Source: an uncultured bacterium
GTDB lineage: Bacteria > Chloroflexota > UBA5177 > JANWHV01
Direction: 5' to 3'
DNA: 64,000 nt
NCBI GenBank assembly: GCA_963827235.1
Contig: CAWHAE010000009.1
Span: forward strand, 320,001-384,000
Positions 9,986-60,481 of the stretch are shown here, in pieces; within the stretch, counting starts at the first letter, position 1, and each line of letters starts with the position of its first letter. Made by a program: the position numbers and the translations under genes. The notes below the pieces were generated by a model. It had not been told where the DNA came from. It was given only the letters and a program-made list of their open reading frames with translations, and made no database searches.

Positions 9986-11532
9986 TCACAGTGCGCCGGC
10001 CTCATCCATGGTCATGGCACGCCCATCCGCCCACGCTGCCTCGAACGCCACGGGGCCCAACGCCGCGCGGAGCGCCGTGACGGCGGTTTCAATGCGGGGG
10101 CGTTCGTTCGGCGGCAGACGGAGTCCGATGATCTCTCGACCGGCCTCGTGCAGGGCCGCTTCCTCGGCCAGCAGGAGGTAGTAGTGCGCGTGCGCGCGTT
10201 GCGCGGCAGCCAGAGCACCGCCGCTATCGAGCCGTTCAAGCCCGAGCTCGCGAATTGTCTCCAGCATGCCGATACGCGTCTCGCCATCGGCCAACTCGGT
10301 GCGCTACACCAGGCTCTTCTCCACCAGGGAGTGGAGTCCCGCCAGCACATCGCCGGTGTGGGCGTCCGTTGCCCTGACCAGCGCGGCGACCGCTTCCGGC
10401 GCGCAGCCGCTGCTGAATACGCTCAGGAGCTGGAAGAGCGTCTGCTCGCCTGGATCGAGTAGCTCGTAGCTCCAGGCGATCGTGGCGCGCATTGTCTGCT
10501 GGCGTGCAGGAAGGTCGCGCGCCCCCGATCAGTACGTCGAGCCGTCGCTCCAGCCGCGCCAGCAGCGCGTGGGGCGAGTACAGGCGGACCTGGGCAGCAG
10601 CCAGCTCCAGGGCCAGCGGCAGTCCTTCCAGACGCGAGCAAACCGCGGCCACCGTGGCGGCGTTGGCCGGAGTGATTGCGAAGTCCGGGTGGTGCGCGCT
10701 CCGCGAAGAGGGCTAGCGAAGGATAGCGCGCAAGGACGTCGAGCGGCGGCAGGTGCTGCAGGTCGGGCAGCGGCAGCGGGGCACCGGAACCTCGCGTTCC
10801 CCGCGCAGACGCAGAGCGGCACTGCTCGTGACCAGCACGTGCAGACCGGTACAGACTTCGAGCAAGCGTGCCAGCTCGGGGCCGGCAGGCAGCAGGTGCT
10901 CAAAGTTGTCCAGCACCAACAGGAGCTGCTTGGCGCGCAGCTGGCACGCCAGCTCCTCGACCACGGGGCCATTGCTTTCCACGCGCAAGCCTACACTCTG
11001 CGCCAGCACGGCCGGCAGCAACGCTGGGTCCTGCAGGCCCGCCAGGGGGACAAACACCACGCCGCCGGCGTAGGCCCGGGCAAGTCCCGCTGCGGCGGCC
11101 AGCGCCAGCCGTGTCTTGCCCACTCCGCCAGGGCCCGTCAGCGTGATCAGCCGAGCTCTCGACGGCCCAGCCGGCTCCAGGAGCAGGAGGTCGGTCAGGC
11201 CCTGAAGCTCCGTCTCGCGACCGAGCAGCGGGGTCAACGGCATCGGCAAGGTATCGCGAGGGCCGTCATGCGTGCCGGAACGCGCCGGTCCCGCGCCACG
11301 CCGCTGGCACTCGGCCACGAACGCGATCTGCTGCTGTCCGGACAGGCCCAGGGCGGCAGCCAGCCGCAGGGCACTCTCACGTTGCGGTGAGCGATTGATG
11401 CCGCGTTCCAGATCGCTGATACCGCGTACGCTGAGTCCGGCCCGTTCCGCCAGCGCTTCCTGAGACACACCGGCCTCCAGGCGGTACCGGTCGCAGCACG
11501 TCGCCGAACGATCCGTGCGCTGTGCCGGTCAT
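9986..11532 (-). pseudogene. Disrupted XRE-HTH + NB-ARC/AAA ATPase + TPR regulator
   Basis: SFGDVLR/RYRLEAGVSQEALAERAGLS, Walker A GPGGVGKTRLA, LLVLDNFEHL, LEGLPLALELAAA, IAWSYELL, LVEKSLV, MLETIRE are spread over several frames; most of the TPR region is missing. Confidence 0.85.
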
Positions 11533-11967: not shown

Positions 11968-12600
11968 CTAGAGTTGCCTGTCATCTCCGGCCATGCCTGC
12001 ACGGTCGTCGCGGCGCCGGTGCCGGAGTCGCTCGACAGCCATTGCCGTCACGATAATACCGAGGAGGATCCAGAAAGCCGCGCGCATGGCCAGCAGCAGG
12101 ACCTGGCTGGCCAGGCGCGGCAGGTTCGTCCAGAACAGCGCGCTAGCCGAGACGATGTGCAGCTGCGCGCTGTCGAAGGTGAGCCACTGCCGGCGAGCCG
12201 GGTAATAGTACTCGACGGTGACCTTGTGCCACCCCAGCTGCTTGAAGCGGTGCGTCACCGCATACCCCTTGGCGACGGCGCCATCGTCGAACACCCAGCG
12301 GAACGGCGTCCGCAGCATCTCGGCCGAGAGCGAGCTCCCTACCTTCGCCACATCCTCGCTCAGGTGCAGGCTGTCGCCCGGTGCTGCCGCCGGCAGCGTG
12401 AACGGCGCCCAGTGAGCAGCATCCACCTGAGAAGGCGTGCCCTCGGTGAGGCTGGCCGTGGTGCCGTTCATCGCGATGGAGGCAATGCCATTCAGGCTGC
12501 AGGCCCGGGCAGTTGCCGCCTGCCCTGCCACCGCCGCGAACGTGAGCAGCACGCACGCCAGCACCCGGCCGGGCGAGAGGCGAGCGACGTGAGCAGTCAT
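11968..12600 (-). CDS. Secreted PKD-like protein with N-terminal Cys and C-terminal membrane anchor (paralogue 1)
   Basis: Signal ending ARA-C, FRWVFDDG..HRFKQLG PKD motif, C-terminal hydrophobic helix plus basic tail; GGAG RBS. Confidence 0.8.
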   Translation of the reverse strand: MTAHVARLSPGRVLACVLLTFAAVAGQAATARACSLNGIASIAMNGTTASLTEGTPSQVDAAHWAPFTLPAAAPGDSLHLSEDVAKVGSSLSAEMLRTPFRWVFDDGAVAKGYAVTHRFKQLGWHKVTVEYYYPARRQWLTFDSAQLHIVSASALFWTNLPRLASQVLLLAMRAAFWILLGIIVTAMAVERLRHRRRDDRAGMAGDDRQL

Positions 12601-12640
12601 GGTCCGAGCTCCTTCGGCGAGGCAACGCAGGTCTTGGCAG

Positions 12641-13132
12641 TCAGGGATGCGTGGCGTGCGGGGCGGGTGCTATGGTGATCGTCACCTGGTCGAAGGCGAT
12701 CCACTGCTTCGTCGGCGGCCAGTACGCCTCGACCACGATGCGCCGGCGGCCCGTGCGGGCATAGGCGTGCTTCACGGTCCAGCCTGTCGCGGTGCTGCCG
12801 TCGCCGAACTCCCACCGCCACGGCCGCTGCATCGCGGCCGGGACGAGTGACTTTACCACCTCGTTCCGAATCTCGGTGAATACGATCGCGCGCTCGGCGC
12901 CGTAGCCGTTTGGTAGCGAGAACGGCGCATACGTCAGGAGCTGCGCCGACGTCGTGGGCGGATCGGTCGTCAGCTGATCGAGGCGGCCGTCGGCGGTCAG
13001 CGAGGGCACGTTGTCCAGCGAGCAGGCGCCGGCGCGGCCAACGGAGAGCAGCGATCCTATGGCCAGGACGGCCGCGATGACAGCCGTAGAGATGAGCGTG
13101 TGTCGCCGGGTGCCGGCTCCCAGGTTCTTCAC
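12641..13132 (-). CDS. Secreted PKD-like protein with N-terminal Cys (paralogue 2)
   Basis: Signal ending AGA-C, WRWEFGDG..HAYARTG; GTG start just after the stop of the SCO fusion. Confidence 0.8.
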   Translation of the reverse strand: MKNLGAGTRRHTLISTAVIAAVLAIGSLLSVGRAGACSLDNVPSLTADGRLDQLTTDPPTTSAQLLTYAPFSLPNGYGAERAIVFTEIRNEVVKSLVPAAMQRPWRWEFGDGSTATGWTVKHAYARTGRRRIVVEAYWPPTKQWIAFDQVTITIAPAPHATHP

Positions 13133-13136
13133 CTGC

Positions 13137-14279
13137 TCATGCCTCGAGCAGCGCCCGGATGGTGGTGACGACACGCGACGGCAAGAACGGCACGTCATAA
13201 TAGGCGCGCAGCCGGCCTGCCGGGTCGATCAGGAACAGTCCGGCCTGGTGCACGATCGCGGTCGTCGGCTTGAAAATGGGCGGAGGCGCTTCCACGTCGA
13301 CCCCATAGGCGCTCCATATGCGAGACAGCACGGGTCGCGGGGCGGTCAGGTAGTGCCAGTCGCCGCCCGGCCAGCCTGCATCCCGCGCGAATTGCGCCGT
13401 CGCGCCGGGGCTATCCAGCTCAGGCTCCACGCTGACCGCTACGATGCTCAGCCTGGACGCATCCTTGCCCAGGTCGTTCCGCACCAGGGTGAGGGCCTTG
13501 CCCACCAGCGGGCATTGCTCCTTGCACAGTGCACTGATGAACGTCAGCGCCACCACCCTGCCGCGCAGTTGCTCGGGCGTGATCAGCGTGCCGTGCTGAT
13601 CGCGCAGGGCAAAGGGGTGGGCTACCGCGGCGGGCCGATACACCGCGTCGGCGGCGATGGCCGGCGCACCTCGCTGTGCCGGCTGGTCGGCGACCAGCGA
13701 CGGCTGGAGGAGCGTGGTGCAGCTCGGGCACTGAATGGCTCCGATCTGCGCCATGCCGTCGCGCACGGTGCCGGCGTCCAGCGGCCCGACCCACTCCGCC
13801 TGCAGACGTCCTGCCTCGTTGATGAAGAAGCTGGTAGGCCGCGCGCCTACGTCATAGGACCACGCCACGCTCTGTCGCGCATCCACGCCGACGGCATAGG
13901 GGATATGGGCCGCGCGGACGAATGCGCGAGCGGACGCGACTGTGTCGCCGCCGGTGGCCACGCCGACCACGCGGATACCCTCCGCCTGGTAGGCGTGCAC
14001 CGCCTGGCGCAACACGGGCAGCTCGTCGAGACAGTCCGCACACTGCGTGTTGAAGAAGTTCAACAGCACGGGATGACCGCGGAATGCGCGCAGCGAGACG
14101 CCGGCACCCGCACCGGAGGCCTGGGGGAGTGTGAAATCGGGCGCCGGCGGGACCAACGCGGCCGGTGCCTGGTGGGCCGCGAACGCCACCACGCCCCCAA
14201 GTGAGGCCACACAGACGACCATCACCGCCGCGAAAACGCGAAGGCGCGTCCCGCGCAAGCGTCGTAGCCAACCAATCAT
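13137..14279 (-). CDS. Membrane-anchored TlpA/redoxin + SCO1/SenC fusion protein
   Basis: APDFTL..VLLNFFNTQCADC (thioredoxin CxxC), linker CPSC, FALRDQHG..CKEQCP..IVHQAGLFLIDPAG (SCO CxxxC + His). Confidence 0.88.
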   Translation of the reverse strand: MIGWLRRLRGTRLRVFAAVMVVCVASLGGVVAFAAHQAPAALVPPAPDFTLPQASGAGAGVSLRAFRGHPVLLNFFNTQCADCLDELPVLRQAVHAYQAEGIRVVGVATGGDTVASARAFVRAAHIPYAVGVDARQSVAWSYDVGARPTSFFINEAGRLQAEWVGPLDAGTVRDGMAQIGAIQCPSCTTLLQPSLVADQPAQRGAPAIAADAVYRPAAVAHPFALRDQHGTLITPEQLRGRVVALTFISALCKEQCPLVGKALTLVRNDLGKDASRLSIVAVSVEPELDSPGATAQFARDAGWPGGDWHYLTAPRPVLSRIWSAYGVDVEAPPPIFKPTTAIVHQAGLFLIDPAGRLRAYYDVPFLPSRVVTTIRALLEA

Positions 14280-14442
14280 GACGGGTCGTCCCTTTGTATC
14301 GGGCAGCGCTTGTGTGGGGCTCTGATCCGCAATATAGCAGGTTCCCGCTTGCTATGCTTGTCATGTCGCGCCGCCCCCGCCCGTGGGGTGGCGCCGGGCG
14401 CTTGCAGCGCAGCCGCTCGTGCCGTAGTGTGAGGTCAGGTGT

Positions 14443-14925
14443 ATGGGTATGGGTGTGCGCGAGAGGAGAGAAGCGTTGGCACGGTCTGCGTGGCAACCGG
14501 CTGCAGTGATTGGTTGTGTGGCAGTGCTGCTGATCGCGTCGGGACTGCGCTCCGTGGCCGCCTGCGACATCGACGGCCTGCCGTCATTGACGGTCGATCA
14601 CACCCTCGTCCTCGTGAACAGCGAGCAGCCGACCAGCCCGGCCACACTCAAAGTCTGGGCGCCGTTCGTCCCGCCCTTCAGCCTGATCGCAACGCGCACC
14701 TATACGTTCGCCGAGATCCGCCAGCGAATTCCCCTGACGCCTGAGGCCTTCGAGAATTCCTGGCGCTGGGCGTTCGGCGACGGGACGCCGCCGGCACGCG
14801 GGGACAGCGTGCGGCACGTCTATCGGCGGCCCGGCGTGTACAGGGTCACCGTCGCTGCCTACTTCCCCTCCCACAAGATCTGGTACACGTTCGACGCTCT
14901 CCAGGTGCGCGTGACGGTGGGCTGA
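14443..14925 (+). CDS. Secreted PKD-like protein with N-terminal Cys (paralogue 3)
   Basis: Signal ending VAA-C, WRWAFGDG..HVYRRPGVYRVTV; start could be 14449. Confidence 0.8.
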   Translation: MGMGVRERREALARSAWQPAAVIGCVAVLLIASGLRSVAACDIDGLPSLTVDHTLVLVNSEQPTSPATLKVWAPFVPPFSLIATRTYTFAEIRQRIPLTPEAFENSWRWAFGDGTPPARGDSVRHVYRRPGVYRVTVAAYFPSHKIWYTFDALQVRVTVG

Positions 14926-15046: not shown

Positions 15047-18000
15047 TCAGGGATTGTCGACGGCCGCTTCGTTCGAGCCCACGGGCGATGGCACTACGGC
15101 CACCACGCGATTGTCTGCCGTGCGGATGATCGTCACGGCGTTGCCGCCGATGCTGGCCACGTAGACGTACTTGCCGTCCGCCGTCACGTCGGGCCCGTGC
15201 GGCTGTGCCGCCACCGGGATCGTGGCGATCACCTTGCGCCGCGCGGCGTCGATCGCGCTCATCTCGTTGCCGAGCTGGTCGGCCACATACACCGTGCGCC
15301 CATCCGGCGCGGCCACCAGCAGCGCCGGTCCCTTGCCTACCGGAATGGTCGCCACCACGCGCAGGGTGCGCTCGTCGATCACCGACACATTGCCGGCAGT
15401 CTGGTTGGCCACCCAGACTTCGTGACGAGGCCCATCCACGGCCACGCCGTAGGCGCCCGGCGCGGTGATCACGGTGCGCCCCGGCCTGAGCGTGGTGGTG
15501 TCGACGGTGTAGACCCAGGCACCGCCGGCGCAGGCCACATACAGGGTCTTGCCATCCTCCGCGATGTCGATGCCGTGCGGCTCGAAACACGTGCCGTCGG
15601 GGAACTCGATCTGCCGGCTCGTGCCGGTCCTCAGATCGAGCACGGAGAGATCGTTGGAGCGGAAGTTGGTGACGAAAGCGCGCCGGCGATCGGGCGTGAA
15701 CACCACGTGGGCCGGCCCAAGTCCCACGGCAAAGGTGCGCACTACCCGCATGCCGCGCAGATCGATCTGCGTCACCGTGCCGGGATCGGCGCCGAAGTTG
15801 GTGACGAAGGCATACGGTGTGCCGTCGAGCACGTCCACGCCGTGCGCTTGCGCGCCCGTGTGCAGGATGGACCCGCCCAGCTTGCGGACGCCGTTGGAGC
15901 CCATCTCCGTCACCAGCACCGTGTAGGGCAGAGCGCGGGCAACAGCCAGGTTATAGGCCTGGCTCAGATTCGCCGAGCGCGCCGGCAGGCCGGCGGGGTT
16001 CGTGCCGGTTTGCGCTGTGAGCAGGTGCATGGGCCCGCTCAGCGGCACATAGTAGGTGAACTGGCGCAACGTGACCCAGGCACCACTCCGCTGCGCCTGA
16101 ATGGTCAGCCCCCAGCGGCCGTTCATCGGCGCGAACGCGTCGCGCACCACCCAGCGACCGCCGCCGAGCGCCGTGGCCGGATAGGTGAGGACGCCCATGT
16201 CCATATCCAGCGACTGCGAAAGCATTCGCACCGCCGAGGCCTGCCCGATGCCGCCTAGCGTGAAGGTGTTGGGCGCGCTGATCAGCCCGGGCGTGGCGAC
16301 AATGCTCACGGCAGCCGAACCGGACTGGTCGAGAAAGGAGGCGCCTGGTCCGGCGATGAACGTGAACGGAAGATCTCGGTACTCGCCGGGATCGTCGCGC
16401 GTACGCACCATCACGTCGGCGCGCCACTGCCCGGCCTGGACGAGGTCGCCGGTCCCGTTGTAGCCGCCGGCAGCCGGCGTGGTCTCCACGAAGGTGTAGC
16501 CCAGTGATGATTGGCCCGGCACGCTCAATCGGATGCGCACCTGGCCGTCGGTCACCTTCCGGCCGCGCTCGGCCACGAGCACGCGAAACGTCGTGCTGCC
16601 TAGGGCCGGCGGCCTGATCGTCAGCGTCGCCTGCAACACGCCCGCTGTAGCACTGCCCGTGATCGCGCCCGGCACCGGTACCGAGGGCGTGGCCGGAGCC
16701 ACGGGCGTGCCGGTCGTCGAGACCACGCTGCTGAACACCGCGGCCGCCGGGGCCGTCTGCCCCATCAGTGCCACGCACAACAGGATGAGGGCGCCGAGCG
16801 CCGGCTCGATGCGCAGGCGCAGGGCAAGCGATGCATACCCGCGTTCGGCCGCCGGTGAGTCGGCCGGCAACCCGCGCAGTCGGGGACGGGTGACAAACAC
16901 GTGGGAAGCGCTCAGCAGCACGATCACACCGATCAGTGCCAGCTTGACCAGCAGAAACCGGCCGTACAGAGTACCGGCGAGTTGATCGAAGCTACCAAGG
17001 TGCACCTGGGCGTTGAACATGCCGGTCACGGCAGCCGCGGCCACCGCGATGTACGCGGCAGGCGAGAAACGGTCCAGCAGGTGCAGGAAGGCTCGCCGGA
17101 GAGCAGACCCGGCCCGGTCGCCGGCCGCCAATGCGTGGAGCGCCGGCAGCAGGGCCAGGGCGATCGCCGCCATGCCGCCGACCCAGACGGCCATGGCGAT
17201 CAGGTGCAGCCAGTCAAGCAGCACGGAAGTGGCCACCATTTGCTGCACCGATGCGGCGTGCCCGGAGAAGGCCAGAGCCAGCAAGTAGGCCAAGCCCAGC
17301 GCGGCGGCGGTCCAGCCGGCCAGGACGCTTGGCTCACCGGCCGCCGCTCTGCCGGGCACCTGACCGCTCGCCGATCCGCGACGCGCGCCCACGACCTCAG
17401 CACGCAGATAGCGGCTCATGCCGGTGACCAGGCGTGATGCCCGGCCGGCCGGGGCGCCGCTGAGAACCAAGAGCGTCACGAAGGCCAGCAGCATGCGTGC
17501 CAGCCAGTAGGTGCCATAGCGCGCGCTCAGGATGGCGTCCAGCGTGTTCGCCGACACCATGCCGCTCCAGCCGCCGGCGCCGTAGGCCTGCGTCTCCAGC
17601 TCCAGCAGCGACGTCACCAGCGCAGCCAGCAGGCCCAGGCGCGCCGTCAGTACACAGCGACGCCCGGCAGCCCTGCAGAGCGAGGCCACCGCGCCTTGAC
17701 GCGTCGCCCGTGTCGACGGGAACAGCACCAGGATCTGCAGTGCCAGGGCCCCGGTCCAGAGCGCCGACGCCGCCAGCACCAGCCAGTGCGCCAGAGCCGC
17801 GGCCACCGCCGGGCCGTCGAGCGTAGGGTTTTGGGGCGCGGCGATGGCGCCCGAGGCGGCGCTCGGCGCCACGGCGCCGCTGCCGCCGGCAGTGAAGGTG
17901 TAGAAGCCGTGCAGCACGTGGCCGTCCAGCGCCGAGTCGCTGGTCCAGTAGACCGAGTAAACCCCATCGGGGAGCGCTGCCAGCCTCACATCTAGCTGTT

Positions 18001-18265
18001 CGCCGTTCGCCGGATCCACGTGGCCGGTATCGCCGTTGACCTGCCGGCCCTGAGCGTCGCGGATCACGATGCGGGAGAGTGCGGAGTTGAGGGCCTCGTC
18101 GAACCAGAAGCGATAGGTGGCGGCCTTCACCAGGACACGGCTGTCGGGCGCCAGCTCGGCGCGCACAAGGTGAGCGTGCGCTGCCGCCTGTCCGGGCAGC
18201 GCGAACAGCGCGAACAGCGCGAGCGCCAGTGCGCACGCACCGAGTAGCAGGCGGCGGACGGACAT
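15047..18265 (-). CDS. CopC-CopD-2x YtkA/FixH-like-YVTN beta-propeller fusion protein
   Basis: Signal + HAHLV..DGHVLHG (CopC); HWL, SGHA, DWLHL, KLAL helices (CopD); two beta-sandwiches, the second with MDMG; about seven YVTN-type blades. Confidence 0.88.
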   Translation of the reverse strand: MSVRRLLLGACALALALFALFALPGQAAAHAHLVRAELAPDSRVLVKAATYRFWFDEALNSALSRIVIRDAQGRQVNGDTGHVDPANGEQLDVRLAALPDGVYSVYWTSDSALDGHVLHGFYTFTAGGSGAVAPSAASGAIAAPQNPTLDGPAVAAALAHWLVLAASALWTGALALQILVLFPSTRATRQGAVASLCRAAGRRCVLTARLGLLAALVTSLLELETQAYGAGGWSGMVSANTLDAILSARYGTYWLARMLLAFVTLLVLSGAPAGRASRLVTGMSRYLRAEVVGARRGSASGQVPGRAAAGEPSVLAGWTAAALGLAYLLALAFSGHAASVQQMVATSVLLDWLHLIAMAVWVGGMAAIALALLPALHALAAGDRAGSALRRAFLHLLDRFSPAAYIAVAAAAVTGMFNAQVHLGSFDQLAGTLYGRFLLVKLALIGVIVLLSASHVFVTRPRLRGLPADSPAAERGYASLALRLRIEPALGALILLCVALMGQTAPAAAVFSSVVSTTGTPVAPATPSVPVPGAITGSATAGVLQATLTIRPPALGSTTFRVLVAERGRKVTDGQVRIRLSVPGQSSLGYTFVETTPAAGGYNGTGDLVQAGQWRADVMVRTRDDPGEYRDLPFTFIAGPGASFLDQSGSAAVSIVATPGLISAPNTFTLGGIGQASAVRMLSQSLDMDMGVLTYPATALGGGRWVVRDAFAPMNGRWGLTIQAQRSGAWVTLRQFTYYVPLSGPMHLLTAQTGTNPAGLPARSANLSQAYNLAVARALPYTVLVTEMGSNGVRKLGGSILHTGAQAHGVDVLDGTPYAFVTNFGADPGTVTQIDLRGMRVVRTFAVGLGPAHVVFTPDRRRAFVTNFRSNDLSVLDLRTGTSRQIEFPDGTCFEPHGIDIAEDGKTLYVACAGGAWVYTVDTTTLRPGRTVITAPGAYGVAVDGPRHEVWVANQTAGNVSVIDERTLRVVATIPVGKGPALLVAAPDGRTVYVADQLGNEMSAIDAARRKVIATIPVAAQPHGPDVTADGKYVYVASIGGNAVTIIRTADNRVVAVVPSPVGSNEAAVDNP

Positions 18266-18356: not shown

Positions 18357-18743
18357 TCAGACGACTGAGAAAGTGAACCACCCCCCGGCGTGGTGACCGT
18401 CGTTGGCCGAGATGGTGTACCAGATCAAGGCATACGTGCCCTTGGCCAGCTTGGGCACGGTCATGGTCATCTCCATCGCGTTGGAGAAGGAGACCTGGCT
18501 ATCTCCGTTATCGTCCTGACCATGATCGCCGGTGGTCTCGAAGATGCCCATAAAGCTCCCCTTCGGAGCGACTCCCTCGGCGAAGAAGCAGCTGACTGTC
18601 TTGGGCATGGCCTTGAGCTTGGCGCCGGGCGCAATGCTGCACTTCTGCAGGCTGGCGTGAGCCAGAGCCACACGCGGCGCCAGGGCGCTCATGCCCAGGA
18701 CCAGGGAGGCCGCGGCCAGCCAGCGGGTCAAATGGATACGCAT
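18357..18743 (-). CDS. copC: Copper-binding protein CopC
   Basis: Signal ending ALA-H (His1), GTYALIWYTISANDGHHAGG; AGGAG RBS. Confidence 0.85.
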   Translation of the reverse strand: MRIHLTRWLAAASLVLGMSALAPRVALAHASLQKCSIAPGAKLKAMPKTVSCFFAEGVAPKGSFMGIFETTGDHGQDDNGDSQVSFSNAMEMTMTVPKLAKGTYALIWYTISANDGHHAGGWFTFSVV

Positions 18744-19072: not shown

Positions 19073-19840
19073 TCAGATCGGTGGCGGGCGCGAAAGCACT
19101 CCCGGGCCGCCCAAGAGGCCGCTCGGGGCGAGGGGCGGCGCCGGCGGGAAGGCCTGGCCCAGCGGTATCTGCAGCGCCTGGCTGAGCAGCCGGCGCAACG
19201 CGGTGATCGCCGCCTGAAGAGTCTCGAAGCGGCGCTCCAACCGCCAGACCAGCGCCGCGAGTAGCAACGCGACCGCCAGGTGCACGGGCAGCAGCGGAAC
19301 GGCGCTCTGCACCGCCATGGCCATGACTACTCCATGCATGTGTGTGGAGACGGTCATGGGCATCGACTGCTCAGCCAGTGCGTACAGGCCGGCCTGGACG
19401 CCGAGCAGCGGCAGCAAGAGCGCCAGCAGCCTGCCTGGATGGAGCGGCGCTCGTGCCGCCGGCGGCCGAGCCGCGACATGCAGGCACCGTGCCGTCTGCG
19501 TGAGGCGGTGCCGCTGGCCCGCGAGCCTCTGCAGCTCGCGAAACAGCGCCAGCAGCGTCAGCAGGGCGGCGGCGATCACTACCAGGAGCCCGCCTCGAAC
19601 CGGACAATGCGCCAGCATGAAGGCGACCGAGGCGGGTCGACCGTTCACACCGTCCAGGCCCAGATGGTATTCGACGACGTGGACGAGCGCTGCACCGACG
19701 CTGGCCAGCAGCAGCAGCGCGCCGGCAGAGAGGACCGGTCCGGCAGGTCCGCTCCCGGCGCGGACCCGCGGCAACGGCAGCCACGCAGCCGGTACGGCTC
19801 GCAGAGCTGACGGTGGCGGTGCGGCACGAGACCAGTACAT
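19073..19840 (-). CDS. Hypothetical ~4-TM His/Met-rich membrane protein with C-terminal RPPP motif (candidate arrest-peptide regulator)
   Basis: Four hydrophobic segments, HVVEYH, AHC, MPMTVSTHMHGVVMAM, ends GVLSRPPPI*; CATACT lies 6 nt before ATG 19840. Confidence 0.75.
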   Translation of the reverse strand: MYWSRAAPPPSALRAVPAAWLPLPRVRAGSGPAGPVLSAGALLLLASVGAALVHVVEYHLGLDGVNGRPASVAFMLAHCPVRGGLLVVIAAALLTLLALFRELQRLAGQRHRLTQTARCLHVAARPPAARAPLHPGRLLALLLPLLGVQAGLYALAEQSMPMTVSTHMHGVVMAMAVQSAVPLLPVHLAVALLLAALVWRLERRFETLQAAITALRRLLSQALQIPLGQAFPPAPPLAPSGLLGGPGVLSRPPPI

Positions 19841-19910
19841 ACTCACAGTATGCTCGCTCGTCCACTATGGACACGGGTGCGCCGCAAGCAGCAGCCAGCG
19901 CCGTCCCGCG

Positions 19911-20980: not shown

Positions 20981-21098
20981 GGTCTTGTGGCGGGCGCGGT
21001 TGCTCCGGCAGGGTGTTTGACGCGCCGGAATGCGTCCGTCGTACAGACCATCGATCGCCGCGGCGCAAGTACCGGCAGGCAAGGGAGGGATTGGATTC

Positions 21099-21470
21099 GT
21101 GCACAAGGTTGCTACTGTTGCTTCATCCCTTTTCAGTCGAATCACCCACTGGCTCGTCATCCGGAATGGAGCCCGCTACGTCCTTGCCGGCACGATCGCG
21201 CTCGCCGCGCTGGGGGCCGTGGTCGCCAACCAGGATCTGCCCAAGCCGCCTGCCATCTCCTCGGTCCTGCCGATAGGCGACAACGATCACGGGCACTACG
21301 GCTGGTATGGTTGGCACAGGCACCATCACGGGGGCTGGCAAGGCCGCGACTACTACTTCGGTCACCAGCAGACGTACGACGGCACCTGGTCGCAGGGATC
21401 CTGGGGCGGAAACGGCTACGTCGGTCAGGGCGGCAGCGGCTCAACCGGTCAATCCGGCAGCGGCTACTGA
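21099..21470 (+). CDS. Small membrane-anchored or secreted His/Gly/Trp/Tyr-rich protein
   Basis: AGGGAGG RBS before GTG 21099, one hydrophobic segment, DHGHYGWYGWHRHHHGGW, followed by a terminator. Confidence 0.7.
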   Translation: MHKVATVASSLFSRITHWLVIRNGARYVLAGTIALAALGAVVANQDLPKPPAISSVLPIGDNDHGHYGWYGWHRHHHGGWQGRDYYFGHQQTYDGTWSQGSWGGNGYVGQGGSGSTGQSGSGY

Positions 21471-21503: not shown

Positions 21504-21541
21504 GCAAAGCGGGACGCGTCGTGCGACGCGTCCCGCTTTGC
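21504..21541. terminator. Perfect 17-bp hairpin, probable bidirectional intrinsic terminator
   Basis: gcaaagcgggacgcgtc-gtgc-gacgcgtcccgctttgc. Confidence 0.75.
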
Positions 21542-21835
21542 GTTGCGCGGCGGCCCGGCGCGTGCGACGCTGAGAGCCCGCCAAGAGCACGGTCCTATAT
21601 CCAATTGTCTGGAGCAGGAGCGGCTTCCTGCGTACCACGTCGGCCCTCGGACGGTTCGTGTCCGCCGCGCCGAAACCTTGCTGGGCTCCCTTGGCCGCCA
21701 GCCAACAGACCACTGCGTCACGATATCCACGTGCGTCCCACTCGCACGAGCGGCAGGCAAAGTGGCAAGATGAGAGTGTATTCTTAAGTTCAATTGCACG
21801 CGACAGGGGAAGCCGCGGTATCACGGTGGGATGCG

Positions 21836-22327
21836 ATGGCAGAAGACAAAGGCACGGCGTCGATTCAGCCGGGAGGAGCGTACGCAGCGCCGGAGTCCAT
21901 GCTCTCCGCCGTCTCCTTCCTGCGCGACCACGGCTTGCGCGTCACCCCGCAGCGACTGCTGCTGGTGGAAGTCGTGCGCGGTCTGTCCGGCCACTTCACC
22001 GCCGACCAGGTCTACAACAGGGTGCGCGCCGCCTACCCGGGCGTGAGCAAGGTGAGCGTCTACAGAGGCCTCGACACCCTGCGCGAGCAGGGCCTGGTCA
22101 CCTGCACCGAGCTCGGCCAACCGTCTGCCGAGTACGAGTGGAGCGGCGCATCCCGGCACCACCACCTCGTCTGTACCCACTGCGGCTACCAGCAGAACGT
22201 GCCCGATGGCGCCATGGACATGCTGCGGCAGCGCCTGGCCTCCGACTACGGCTTCCAGGCCACCATCGACCACATCGCGATCTGGGGCGTCTGCGAAGCG
22301 TGCCACCAGGCACAGCACAAAGAGTGA
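21836..22327 (+). CDS. Fur-family transcriptional regulator (Fur/Zur/PerR)
   Basis: LRVTPQR, HFTADQVY, SVYRGLDTL, HHHLVCTHCG, GVCEAC. Confidence 0.92.
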   Translation: MAEDKGTASIQPGGAYAAPESMLSAVSFLRDHGLRVTPQRLLLVEVVRGLSGHFTADQVYNRVRAAYPGVSKVSVYRGLDTLREQGLVTCTELGQPSAEYEWSGASRHHHLVCTHCGYQQNVPDGAMDMLRQRLASDYGFQATIDHIAIWGVCEACHQAQHKE

Positions 22328-24121: not shown

Positions 24122-24194
24122 CAGGGGTGGCAGGATTCGAACCCGCAACCGACGGTTTTGGAGACCGTTGCACTGCCAATTGTGCTACACCCCT
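24122..24194 (-). tRNA. trnW: tRNA-Trp(CCA)
   Basis: AGGGGTG acceptor stem, anticodon arm ACGGT-CTCCAAA-ACCGT, T-loop GGTTCGAATCC; 3' CCA not encoded (CCC). Confidence 0.95.
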
Positions 24195-24200
24195 GTGCGG

Positions 24201-24273
24201 TGGAGCTGAGGGGACTCGAACCCCTGACCCCTGCGATGCGAACGCAATGCTCTCCCAACTGAGCTACAGCCCC
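24201..24273 (-). tRNA. trnA: tRNA-Ala(CGC)
   Basis: GGGGCTG/CAGCTCC-A acceptor with G3:U70, anticodon loop TTCGCAT, GGTTCGAGTCC; 3' CCA not encoded (CCG). Confidence 0.95.
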
Positions 24274-48841: not shown

Positions 48842-50469
48842 CTACTGGATGGTGACGTCTGCCCAGTTCGGCGGAATGATCAGCGATCCGCCGCCCAGGG
48901 CGGTGAGGGCGAGACCCTTCACCTTTGGATTGATCAGCACGTTCGCCTTGCCCCAGTCGATCACGATGCAGCCGGCGGTATTCATGAGCAGTTGCTCCGC
49001 CTGTTGATACTTCTGGTAGCGCGCGGGGCTGTCGTGTGGCATGATGTCCGCCGCTTGGGTCAGCGAGTCGAAGGTCGCGTTACTGTAAAAGCCGTTGTTG
49101 AAGGCCACGCCGCTCTGGAACTCCAGGCTGAGGAAATCCTGCGGGTCCGGGTAGTCCGCACCCCACTGCACCGCCGAGAGATCGAAGTTGTGGTCGGTCA
49201 GAGCATTGGTGTAGGCGCCATGCTCGAGCTGATTCAGTCGCACGGTGATGCCCAGTACCTGCTTCCAGAACTCCTGCAGCGCCACGGCCTTGGTCTGGCC
49301 GTCGTTGTCTCCGCCGTCGACGTTCAGGGTGAGGGTCGGGAAACCCTTTCCGCCCGGGTAACCGGCCTGTGCCAGGAGCTGCTTGGCCTTGGTCTGGTTG
49401 AACGTCTCGCCTTTAAGATTCTTGTTGTAGCCCGGCATACCCGGCGGCAGCATGCCGTCGGCCGGCAGGAAGCGGTTGTCGAGCAGCCTGACGATCGTGG
49501 CGCGGTTGACGGCATACGAGAGCGCCTGGCGAACCAGCGGATTGTCGAGCGGCGTGCGGTGCTCGTTGACGACCAGAAACTCGGTGAAGAGCTGGGGAGT
49601 GGTGTGGAAGTCGGGCGTGCCCTGCACGTCCTTGAGGTGGTTGCCCGGGAAATTGATCATGCCCATGATGTCCAGGGCGCCGGTCTTGTAGAGGTTGTAG
49701 GCGGTCTCTGTATCCTTTATGAACTCCACGACGACGCCCGCCAGTTTTGGTGTGCCCTGCCAGAAGTAGGGATTGGGTGCCAGGTCGATTTCCTGGTTGT
49801 GCTTCCACTGCTTGACGATGAAGGGACCGGTAGCGGCGGCGTGCTCCGTCCAGTTACTACCGTATTTCTCCACCTGGTCGCGCGGCACCAGGAAGGCCAC
49901 GGAATAGGCAAGCTCGTCGAGAAAGACTGCCGCGGGCTGATCGAGTGTGATCTGCACCTTATTCGTGCCGATCGCCTTGAGTCCCTTCACCGTCTTGGCC
50001 TTTCCGTTGGCCATATCCAGGCCGCCTACGATGTGGCTCAGGTAGAAGCTGACGCCGCCCGCGGCATAGGCCGGGCTGAAGGCGCGAGTAAGCGACCACA
50101 CGACATCCTGCGCGGTGACGGGCGTGCCGTCACCCCATTTCAGACCCGGGCGGAGCGTGAACGTGTAGACCTTGCCGCCATTCGAGACCGTCCAGGAGGA
50201 TGCGGCGGCCGGCTGCACGCGCAGGTTCTGGTCCAGCCGCACGAGACCTCCGAAGACGAGGTTCTCCACCACGTCACTCTGCGCATCCCCGGCACTCGGT
50301 GAGGGAGGGTCTATGACGCCAGGTCGCTTTCACCCTCGTCCGAGATTCGCAGCACGCCGCCGGCCGCATGAGCCGGCGTCGCCACGCCGTGGGCGGCCAC
50401 CGGGCTGATCAATCCGAGCATGAGGCCAAGCGCGGCAGCAAGCCGTGCCGCCCGCGGTCGCATAGTCAT
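48842..50469 (-). pseudogene. Oligopeptide-binding protein (OppA type) with a 1-nt frameshift near 50314
   Basis: Signal-bearing frame MTMRPR..PAHA-AGGVLRISDEGESDLAS stops at 50311; the shifted frame continues IDPPSP..VVENLVFGGL through WGADYPDP. Confidence 0.8.
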
Positions 50470-58927: not shown

Positions 58928-60481
58928 CTACTGGAAGTAGGCGCCGGCTAGACCCTGATAGCTGGCTCGTGGGATGTAGACGAAACCCTTGACGTTTGGA
59001 CTCATCGCATAGTCCCAATAGCTCGCATAGGTGTAGATCATAGGCCCGCCGTCATTTACCAGCCTGAGCTGGACCTTGTTGTACAACGCCTTGCGAGCGG
59101 CCGCCGACGTCGCGGCTCGTGCCTGGTCGAGCAAGCCGTCAACCGCCGGATCGCTGAACTGGAAGGCGTTCGTCGAGCCGCCGGTATGGAGCGCGGCGTA
59201 CATGGCCAGATCGGGATCCGTCCAATCACCGTTCTCGCCGGTGAACGAGTCGAAGTCGCGTACCACCCACTTGTGGACGTAGTCGCCCCACTCAGTCGTG
59301 GCGATATTCACGGTGATGCCCAACGGCTTCAGCTGCTGCTGGATGATCTCAGCGGCTGTGTAGTCGGATGGCAAGTAGTGCGACGCCATGATGCTGAAGC
59401 TGAAGCCTTTGGCATAACCCGCCTGGGCCAGCAGCTGCTTGGCCCGGGCCAGGTTCGGCGTGTAGGACGGGTACTGGCTCACCGGCAGCGCCCAGCTCCC
59501 GAGAGCGGGCGTGAGCAGGCCGGTGACGACGCCCTGGCCGCGCCCGGCGGCCTGCAGGATCTGCTTTCTATCGATCGCGTAGCTGAGCGACAGCCGGACA
59601 AGCGGATTGTCGAAGGGCTTGCGCTTCGTGTTGAAGCCGAGGAGGTGATAGTTGATGTCGAGCACATGCAGCACCGAAACGAGGTTGGCTTGCTGGAGCT
59701 GCTGTACTTGCTGGAAGTAGATCGGATCGAGAAAGGCCGCGAACTGGATCTGGCCCGTGCGCAGGGCGGCCACTCTGCTCGCGTCGGAGGGGATGATCTG
59801 GAAGACGACACTGTCGAAATGCGGTTGTCCGGGCACGAAGTAGTGCGGGTTCTTCACCAGCGTAATCGAGGTGTTCGGCACCCAGGACTTGAGCATGTAC
59901 GGACCCGTGCCGTCTTCGACGCGAGTCAGCTTGCCGGCATTGGCCGTCAAGAACTTGGCCGAGGTGACCGTCAGGAAGCTGGCGATCACCGCCAGAAACG
60001 GGCCATACGGCTTGCTCAGCTTCACGACCACGGTGGCGTTGTCCGGCGTGGAGACCGCGACGACCGGAGTAAAGAATGAGGCCCAGGGCGATGCAGTCTT
60101 CTTGTCTTGCAGGCGGGCCATGCTCGCCGCGACGTCGCCGGCCGCCAGCGCGGTTCCGTCGTGGAACGTGACGCCGGATCGGAGATGGAACGTGTAGGTT
60201 TTTCCGCCGTCCGTGATGGCCCAGCTCGATGCCAGGTCGGGCACAATCTGCGCCTTCGCGTCAAGCTTGACCAGGCTGTTGTAGAGAAGATCCTCGACGG
60301 GCAGTGAAGCCTCGTCGGTCGTGACCGTTGGATCGAGAGTGAGCGCATCACTCGACGCGCCAATGGTGAGCGTGTTGGCCGCCGCGCTGGCACGATGCGC
60401 GTGCAAGGGCAGTGTGCCAATCAGCAAGGCTGCCAGCAGAGCACTGGCAAGCACCGCGCGTACCTGAACCGGCTTGAACAT
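58928..60481 (-). CDS. Peptide/nickel-family ABC substrate-binding protein
   Basis: Signal peptide, TLDP, PDLASSW, YTFHLRSGVTFHDG, GTGPY; GGAGG RBS. Confidence 0.93.
   Translation of the reverse strand: MFKPVQVRAVLASALLAALLIGTLPLHAHRASAAANTLTIGASSDALTLDPTVTTDEASLPVEDLLYNSLVKLDAKAQIVPDLASSWAITDGGKTYTFHLRSGVTFHDGTALAAGDVAASMARLQDKKTASPWASFFTPVVAVSTPDNATVVVKLSKPYGPFLAVIASFLTVTSAKFLTANAGKLTRVEDGTGPYMLKSWVPNTSITLVKNPHYFVPGQPHFDSVVFQIIPSDASRVAALRTGQIQFAAFLDPIYFQQVQQLQQANLVSVLHVLDINYHLLGFNTKRKPFDNPLVRLSLSYAIDRKQILQAAGRGQGVVTGLLTPALGSWALPVSQYPSYTPNLARAKQLLAQAGYAKGFSFSIMASHYLPSDYTAAEIIQQQLKPLGITVNIATTEWGDYVHKWVVRDFDSFTGENGDWTDPDLAMYAALHTGGSTNAFQFSDPAVDGLLDQARAATSAAARKALYNKVQLRLVNDGGPMIYTYASYWDYAMSPNVKGFVYIPRASYQGLAGAYFQ

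Follow-up and report, generated by a model that had tools for sequence, protein, structure and literature searches.

PKD-domain genes with a cysteine after the signal peptide

We analysed a 64,000-nucleotide stretch of DNA from an uncultured Chloroflexota bacterium (GenBank assembly GCA_963827235.1, contig CAWHAE010000009.1, positions 320,001 to 384,000; hereafter "the window"), in which three related genes encode exported proteins that carry a cysteine directly after the signal peptide. We named the three copies A (P0001), B (P0004) and C (P0003), and number residues according to mature C, beginning with the cysteine (Cys1):

11968-12600, minus strand: paralogue A (P0001), 210 amino acids (aa); signal end ARA, PKD-fold domain, C-terminal membrane anchor; Cys1 codon at 12499-12501; Asn at the family Asp4 position
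12641-13132, minus strand: paralogue B (P0004), 163 aa; signal end AGA, Cys1 codon at 13022-13024, anchor-free
14443-14925, plus strand: paralogue C (P0003), 160 aa; signal end VAA, Cys1 codon at 14563-14565, anchor-free

The signal/mature junctions read ARA/CSLNGIASI in A, AGA/CSLDNVPSL in B and VAA/CDIDGLPSL in C, just as the original prediction had it, and in each protein the cysteine is the only one in the mature chain. The copies show 29-41% identity to the first-aligned copy, and all three match the Pfam PKD_4/PKD profiles, two of them above the curated cut-off. Two further features had been read correctly: a C-terminal hydrophobic segment is present in A alone, and only VAAC, which is preceded by Arg at -5, fits a strict lipobox (pattern [LVI][ASTVI][GAS]C). 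An internal VIGC in C was rejected as a lipobox, being located at the start of the h-region and absent from close relatives. For B we chose the GTG at 13132 as the start codon over an ATG at 13198; it has GAGG upstream and agrees with the 163-aa database entry. In our alignment the motifs (W/Y)APF, Glu, RW.F(G/D)DG, His and Y.P....W..FD are common to all three copies, but the motif list had to be amended in two respects: the His and W.FGDG occur in PKD domains generally, and a conserved Asp4 had been overlooked because A carries Asn at this position. By membership, A, B and C are PKD-domain proteins, and not CopC proteins, YcnI proteins or canonical lipoproteins.

Conservation and export of the first cysteine

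Word-based searches, each scoring about 8,000 candidates, yielded an incomplete set of 152 family sequences: 46 from the first search after removal of three weak generic PKD matches, followed by 1, 27 and 78 new ones. A slight bias in the set may come from the Cys column, which the search profiles included. Source names point to Chloroflexota or Chloroflexi wherever they give a taxon, and most records give none. The first 74 members have a median pairwise identity of 37%, all 74 match PKD_4 at E<=0.01, and the family motif reads C-x-[ILV]-D-G-x-[PA]-[ST].

Cys occupies position +1 in 140 of 146 aligned homologues, in 140 of the 142 with an intact N-terminus, and in 36 of 37 representatives after clustering at 60% identity. 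Four of the six exceptions have non-homologous or damaged N-termini, while P0033 (Thr) and P0253 (Phe) are intact. Cys1 is also the only Cys within residues 1-120 in 133 of the 140 members that possess it. In the SignalP 6 training set the background frequency of a +1 Cys is 2.0% (PMC12537917), and the conservation of Cys1 exceeds chance; its loss among homologues had been named beforehand as a possible refutation of the original prediction. The only genuine Cys-less member, P0033, reads THSAHSG immediately before +1; His may replace Cys at its mature N-terminus, though one sequence is no more than suggestive.

In a tree of 46 sequences, A, B and C fall into separate subfamilies (support 90/81, 92/84 and 100/99) alongside a fourth (100/99), which rules out a recent local triplication. 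The largest subfamily is of the CTIDGKPT type. A profile search of 50%-identity representatives returned one family member among its best 150 matches; the remaining 149 were multi-PKD proteins, which served as our control below. Searches of the atlas, PDB sequences and NCBIfam gave generic PKD matches only, and a plasmid tblastn search gave one weak archaeal PKD match only. A weak search with an N-terminal-only profile (8,000 candidates scored) produced no informative fusion among 37 matches of 138-235 aa. P0298, in which a YVTN fragment is joined to the family's C-terminal half, was set aside as a fusion; it is probably a frameshift chimera.

The signals of the family resemble those of signal peptidase I (SPI) substrates. 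Position -1 is Ala in 139 of 146 sequences (Gly in only 2), position -3 is Ala, Thr or Val in 140 of 146 (Leu in only 2), and one of Gln, Arg, Asn and His occupies position -2 in 99 of 146. A Pro or a charged or His residue lies within -2 to -7 in 58 of 70 sequences, and the Cys is residue 29.1 +/- 4.3 of the precursor in the 122 sequences with a usable start. These figures are unlike those of a published set of monoderm lipoproteins (PMC13068155), in which 76% have Leu at -3 and 82% have Ala, Ser or Thr at -2, the Cys is residue 21.4 +/- 2.7 and the linkers, about 17 residues long, are flexible. The strict lipobox recognised by signal peptidase II fits just 4 of 140 members. Moreover, 35 of 36 C-terminally anchored members keep Cys1, the remaining one being a fragment, and the CopC domains encoded in the same cluster share the A-x-A signal end, there before His1. 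Among the candidate exported proteins of the window and of five further family loci described below (L001-L005), we found no lipoprotein-type signals bar two internal matches. Two family-5 ABC solute-binding proteins in the window (58928-60481 and 48842-~50470, both minus strand) likewise lack a lipobox Cys, their signals ending in A-x-A; a frameshift near 50300 in the second gene may be a sequencing error. Lipobox-free family-5 solute-binding proteins are unusual for a monoderm, and their sequences suggest that the lineage may use few lipoproteins.

Taken with the signal statistics, the A-x-A ends of CopC, the anchored members and the solute-binding proteins make it very probable that the proteins are exported by Sec, cut by SPI at A-x-A and left with an unmodified, exposed Cys1. 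Lipidation in all copies had also been named as a possible refutation, and the signals speak against it. The corresponding rival explanation is that the proteins are lipoproteins, or acylated at Cys1, with a lineage-specific lipobox, in which case the Cys would do no more than anchor the protein, and the PKD domain would act as an adaptor within a copper cluster. An invariant Cys right after a signal peptide is a lipoprotein hallmark, Ala at -1 and Ser, Ala or Gly at +2 are compatible with lipidation, B and C have no other anchor, and Lgt has divergent forms in Anaerolineales (PMC13251419). We regard this explanation as very unlikely given the near-absence of the strict lipobox and of Gly at -1, the polar or charged -2 residues, the long signals, the lack of such signals among neighbouring exported proteins and the retention of Cys in anchored members, together with a conserved Asp4-Gly5-x-x-Ser/Thr8 segment unlike a variable tether.

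Predicted fold and family-specific residues

For mature C and the ectodomain of A, AlphaFold2 gave models with predicted local distance difference test (pLDDT) scores of 93.8 and 92.5, respectively, which consist of one PKD-type beta-sandwich plus ~35-40 extra residues. The models are folded from residue 9 at the latest, which leaves no room for a long N-terminal tether. PKD domains head the Foldseek and VIA match lists, and the best structural matches (2c4x, 4u7k and 1l0q) have Z scores of 8.2-8.6 and root-mean-square deviations of 2.1-2.5 Å over 78-84 of ~120 residues. The family shares the W.FGDG, HxY and GxYxV core with PKD domains (PF00801/PF18911), such as those of clostridial collagenase and archaeal S-layer proteins. 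It differs from them as a stand-alone single domain with the added residues, a longer F-G hairpin and an invariant set of Cys1, Asp4, Glu51 and Phe110-Asp111, while the Ca2+-binding D-x-D is not conserved.

Asp4 is found in 143 of 146 sequences (Asn4 occurs in paralogue A and in one L004 copy), Glu51 in 151 of 152, Phe110 and Asp111 in 144 of 144, and Ser or Thr at position 8 in 145 of 149; Asn/Asp12-Gly13 and W/Y-A-P-F35 are also conserved. As a generic control we used 2,475 W.FGDG-selected PKD segments from the 149 multi-PKD proteins. The PKD His is present in 75% of these segments, which marks it as generic and rules it out as a family-specific ligand. By comparison, 28 of the 2,475 segments have Glu at the Glu51-like place, 635 have Asp there and 450 gave no call; FD follows strand F in 2%. 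Judged by these sequence comparisons, Asp4, Glu51 and Asp111 are near-invariant and are not generic PKD features.

In structural alignments, model residue 3 aligns with residue 689 of the ColH PKD domain and residue 8 with residue 691. The ColH Ca2+ ligands are Asn685, Ser686, Asp713, Asp715 and Asp754 (PMC4356367), and extrapolation from the alignment end points would place Cys1 at the Ca2+-binding pole of canonical PKD domains. The positions that form the collagenase-type Ca2+ site itself (N-terminal Asn, D-x-D loop and F-G turn Asp) are not conserved in the family. Neither fold nor context supports an N-terminal-nucleophile enzyme or a Cys/amine-Asp cross-link, and we consider both exceedingly improbable.

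Copper gene neighbourhood and the proposed metal site

The three genes adjoin a cluster of copper genes in the window:

13137-14279, minus strand: TlpA-Sco fusion; TlpA/ResA-like thioredoxin domain (CADC), CxxC linker, Sco domain (CKEQCP ... HQAG)
15047-18265, minus strand: YcnJ-like CopC-CopD-YtkA fusion with a YVTN beta-propeller; His1 after A-x-A, and DGH, intact
18357-18743, minus strand: stand-alone CopC; His1 after ALA, DGH, conserved Cys pair
19073-19846, minus strand: unnamed membrane protein; HxxEYHLG, Met-rich stretch; no Pfam matches

The minus-strand order is thus the unnamed membrane protein, copC and copC-copD-ytkA-YVTN, and then TlpA-Sco, B and A; C is divergent from TlpA-Sco and convergent with copCD. 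TlpA-Sco is the first gene of its run with B and A, and B begins 4 nt after the TlpA-Sco stop. The CopC His1 and DGH and the Sco CxxxCP and His motifs are intact. The longest reading frame of the CopC-CopD-YtkA-YVTN gene starts from 18304, while a Shine-Dalgarno sequence favours 18265, and its YtkA match is below the cut-off.

A scan of GTDB returned 15 loci, of which five from three Chloroflexota metagenome-assembled genomes (MAGs) are true family loci (L001-L005); the other ten (L006-L015) matched the generic PKD core only and were dropped. The five loci hold nine family genes, all with Cys1, a count that is partly circular since one scan pattern contained Cys. The copC-copCD block is repeated in L001 and L004, TlpA-Sco in L001. 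L003 has four family copies within 4.4 kb along with Sco, and genes for DUF929 and VKOR between two of the copies. L002 adjoins two cation-efflux genes and ArsR. In all, three of the five loci are copper-linked and four are metal-linked, and each of the three MAGs has a copper-linked copy. The copper context implied by the original prediction is therefore real and conserved, with CopC, CopCD or Sco genes adjoining the family in the window, L001, L003 and L004.

Several side features of these neighbours recur. The TlpA-Sco linker carries an extra CxxC (CPSC, CTSC) in the window and in L001 (2-1072), and the additional C-terminal YVTN beta-propeller of the YcnJ-like importer is kept in L001 and L004. 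The Cys pair of stand-alone CopC, likely a disulfide, is also found in L001 (4349-4735) and L004 (5517-5906) and is absent from the fused CopC domain. The unnamed membrane protein, a candidate copper transporter or sensor, lies immediately upstream of copC in the window, L001 (5045-5857) and L004 (6098-6829). It additionally has a conserved Cys-Pro and a C-terminal RPPP, which we take to resemble RAPP-like arrest motifs.

Among characterised proteins, the closest architectural analogue is YcnI (DUF1775), the monohistidine-brace protein of Bacillus subtilis ycnKJI, which binds Cu(II) via His1 and Glu (PMC8424229). Like the family it has a signal peptide, a metal-capable residue 1 and conserved Glu and Trp, and like the A-type copies it is a small beta-sandwich with a C-terminal membrane helix, encoded beside a CopC-CopD-YtkA importer (PMC8424229). 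The A-type copies of the window, L001 and L004 have this arrangement (exported, C-terminally anchored, beside CopC-CopD with or without YtkA). YcnI differs in having His1 (the family has His at +1 in 0 of 146 sequences) and a cupredoxin rather than a PKD fold; the family has several paralogues per genome, and DUF1775 matches 0 of 74 members. CopC, whose His1 forms part of a histidine brace, is likewise an exported beta-sandwich with residue 1 fixed by A-x-A cleavage, encoded in the same gene cluster. The family is without His1, DGH or a match to the CopC Pfam profile (PF04234), all of which the neighbouring true CopC domains possess, and its only conserved His is the generic PKD one. The analogy to His1 of CopC drawn in the original prediction is thus plausible, but YcnI is the nearer model.

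A third comparison is with the Ang-1/Ang-2 "anglerases" and other signal-strapping His1 proteins, which resemble the family as secreted proteins with an Ig-like domain; theirs binds Cu(II) by residue 1 plus one oxygen ligand and is linked to metal uptake (PMC12537917). All four families characterised in that study use His1, unlike the Cys1 seen here, and its search logic is said to extend to N-terminal Cys (PMC12537917). PKD is absent from its main text, and the terms N-terminal cysteine, Cys1 and Chloroflex are absent from five supplements, one of them cut short (PMC12537917). The ligand pair that we propose has a precedent in the nickel site of E. coli HypB, where the amine at the N-terminus and the thiolate of the first Cys bind the metal (PMC7055735); HypB differs in being cytoplasmic, with three Cys and an unrelated fold.

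With Cys standing in for His, the family suits the place that YcnI takes, and it probably works like YcnI or CopC. Our favoured reading is that A, B and C are YcnI/CopC-like copper-handling proteins in which Cys1 replaces His1, to which we assign a probability of about one half. In this reading, Sec export and SPI cleavage at A-x-A would free Cys1, whose alpha-amine and thiolate, completed by at least one of Asp4, Glu51 and Asp111, may hold a copper ion. On the outer side of the membrane, the proteins could then take up copper, buffer it or hand it on, working among CopC, the YcnJ-like importer and Sco. The lone thiol would be kept in its reduced state by the TlpA domain, and anchored (A-type) and free (B- and C-type) copies may take different positions or partners. 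A more far-reaching version, which we put forward tentatively and with slightly less assurance, is that of a "cysteine brace" family of secreted proteins, in which a non-lipidated Cys1 and the conserved carboxylates would bind copper on the PKD scaffold and a dedicated TlpA-Sco fusion would keep the site reduced and exchange copper with it. The family would then take the YcnI/PCuAC place in the copper-uptake clusters of a Chloroflexota lineage with seemingly few or no lipoproteins. Known activities of related proteins are consistent with such a scheme: YcnJ (CopC-CopD-YtkA) imports copper for respiratory oxidases (PMC13344008), YcnI exchanges Cu(II) with YcnJ-CopC (PMC12154828), and TlpA keeps the cysteines of Sco and CoxB reduced (PMC6669012).

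Several points weigh against this reading. One Cys with carboxylates also suits Zn, Ni, Co and Ca, and a thiol beside Cu(II) oxidises easily. The alignment of the first 74 members reveals no family-specific conserved His or Met that could be a second soft ligand, and Glu51 lies near the PKD strand B bulge, where 635 of the 2,475 generic segments have Asp, so that its role may be structural. Residues 1-10 are the least confident part of the models (mean pLDDT 71 and 76). A permissive lipobox pattern (the last five positions of G+LPPv3) fits 28 of 140 members, 14 of them with an uncharged run before it, and Lgt is reported across bacteria (PMC13251419). The context comprises the window and five short contigs from three MAGs, with the CTIDGKPT subfamily outside this sample, and one locus, L005, which begins 134 bp from a contig end, is without a metal gene downstream.

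The oxidoreductase neighbours also fit a different explanation, in which free Cys1 takes part in thiol chemistry: an inter-chain disulfide, which could form within homodimers or attach free copies to an anchored one or to a partner, or a redox relay with TlpA/Sco, the acidic residues being structural or Ca2+-binding. In each chain the sole Cys is exposed, on an N-terminal arm of low model confidence, TlpA-Sco (window and L001) or DUF929 and VKOR (L003) lie alongside, and PKD domains use Asp for Ca2+ at the same pole (PMC4356367). We judge this unlikely. A disulfide needs no exact residue 1, yet the position is fixed in 140 of 142 sequences; the CopC Cys pair and the Sco motif are other clients for the oxidoreductases; and the canonical D-x-D and F-G turn Asp pattern of Ca2+ sites differs from the pattern in the family.

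It is quite unlikely, in our estimate, that a Cys-amine-carboxylate site exists with Zn, Ni or Co as its physiological metal, for uptake or buffering. Sulfur, nitrogen and oxygen ligand sets that include the N-terminal amine are known in the Ni/Co proteins RcnR and HypB (PMC7055735), L002 has its cation-efflux and ArsR genes, and a Fur-family gene lies ~7 kb from the window copies. The neighbours in the window and in three of the five other loci are copper-specific, however, and the Fur gene has no counterpart in L001-L005, which are short contigs.

The original prediction had alternatively proposed that the three proteins co-assemble into a surface complex; in its copper form, two or three Cys1 thiolates from different chains (for example A, B and C) would make one surface Cu(I) site. 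Distinct subfamilies do stand side by side in one genome, L003 packs its four copies closely, a chain with one Cys could build a thiolate-rich Cu(I) site only with partners, and one anchored copy could hold the others. The copies per genome vary, however (two, three and four were seen), as do their subtypes and placement, and one MAG has copies on three separate contigs with differing neighbours, which does not favour an obligate complex of fixed stoichiometry. Tethering is also not required, because unanchored exported proteins such as CopC and solute-binding proteins are usual in the window. A complex prediction with mature A, B and C and three Zn scored 0.00 in both runs and returned no contacts, which is evidence neither way. 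Overall, we find co-assembly of this kind highly improbable.

Altogether, A, B and C belong to a real, apparently undescribed and lineage-restricted family in copper-uptake clusters whose Cys1 is strongly selected and probably unlipidated. The known secreted first-residue copper binders (CopC, YcnI, lytic polysaccharide monooxygenases and anglerases) all use His1. A version with N-terminal Cys has been foreseen in print (PMC12537917); in the literature searched, most subscription journals being outside its scope, we found neither this bacterial family nor any secreted copper protein with Cys1 described. Its members are small, well folded in prediction, single-Cys and encoded beside their likely partners. 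If the copper-handling reading is correct, it would provide a new ligand type in copper trafficking and a transition-metal role for the PKD domain, and a Cys after a signal peptide should not by default be taken to indicate a lipoprotein.

Elsewhere in the window, an Rfam scan detected two tRNAs only, in tandem at 24122-24273 (minus strand), and we found no sigma-70 promoter, terminator or shared operator palindrome in the DNA searched. A perfect 18-bp inverted repeat (21504-21541) lies between a small Gly/His-rich exported reading frame (21030-21470, plus strand) and the Fur-family gene (21794-22327, plus strand). Finally, a regulator gene with helix-turn-helix and AAA/NB-ARC-like regions (9986-11468, minus strand) appears broken into several frames.

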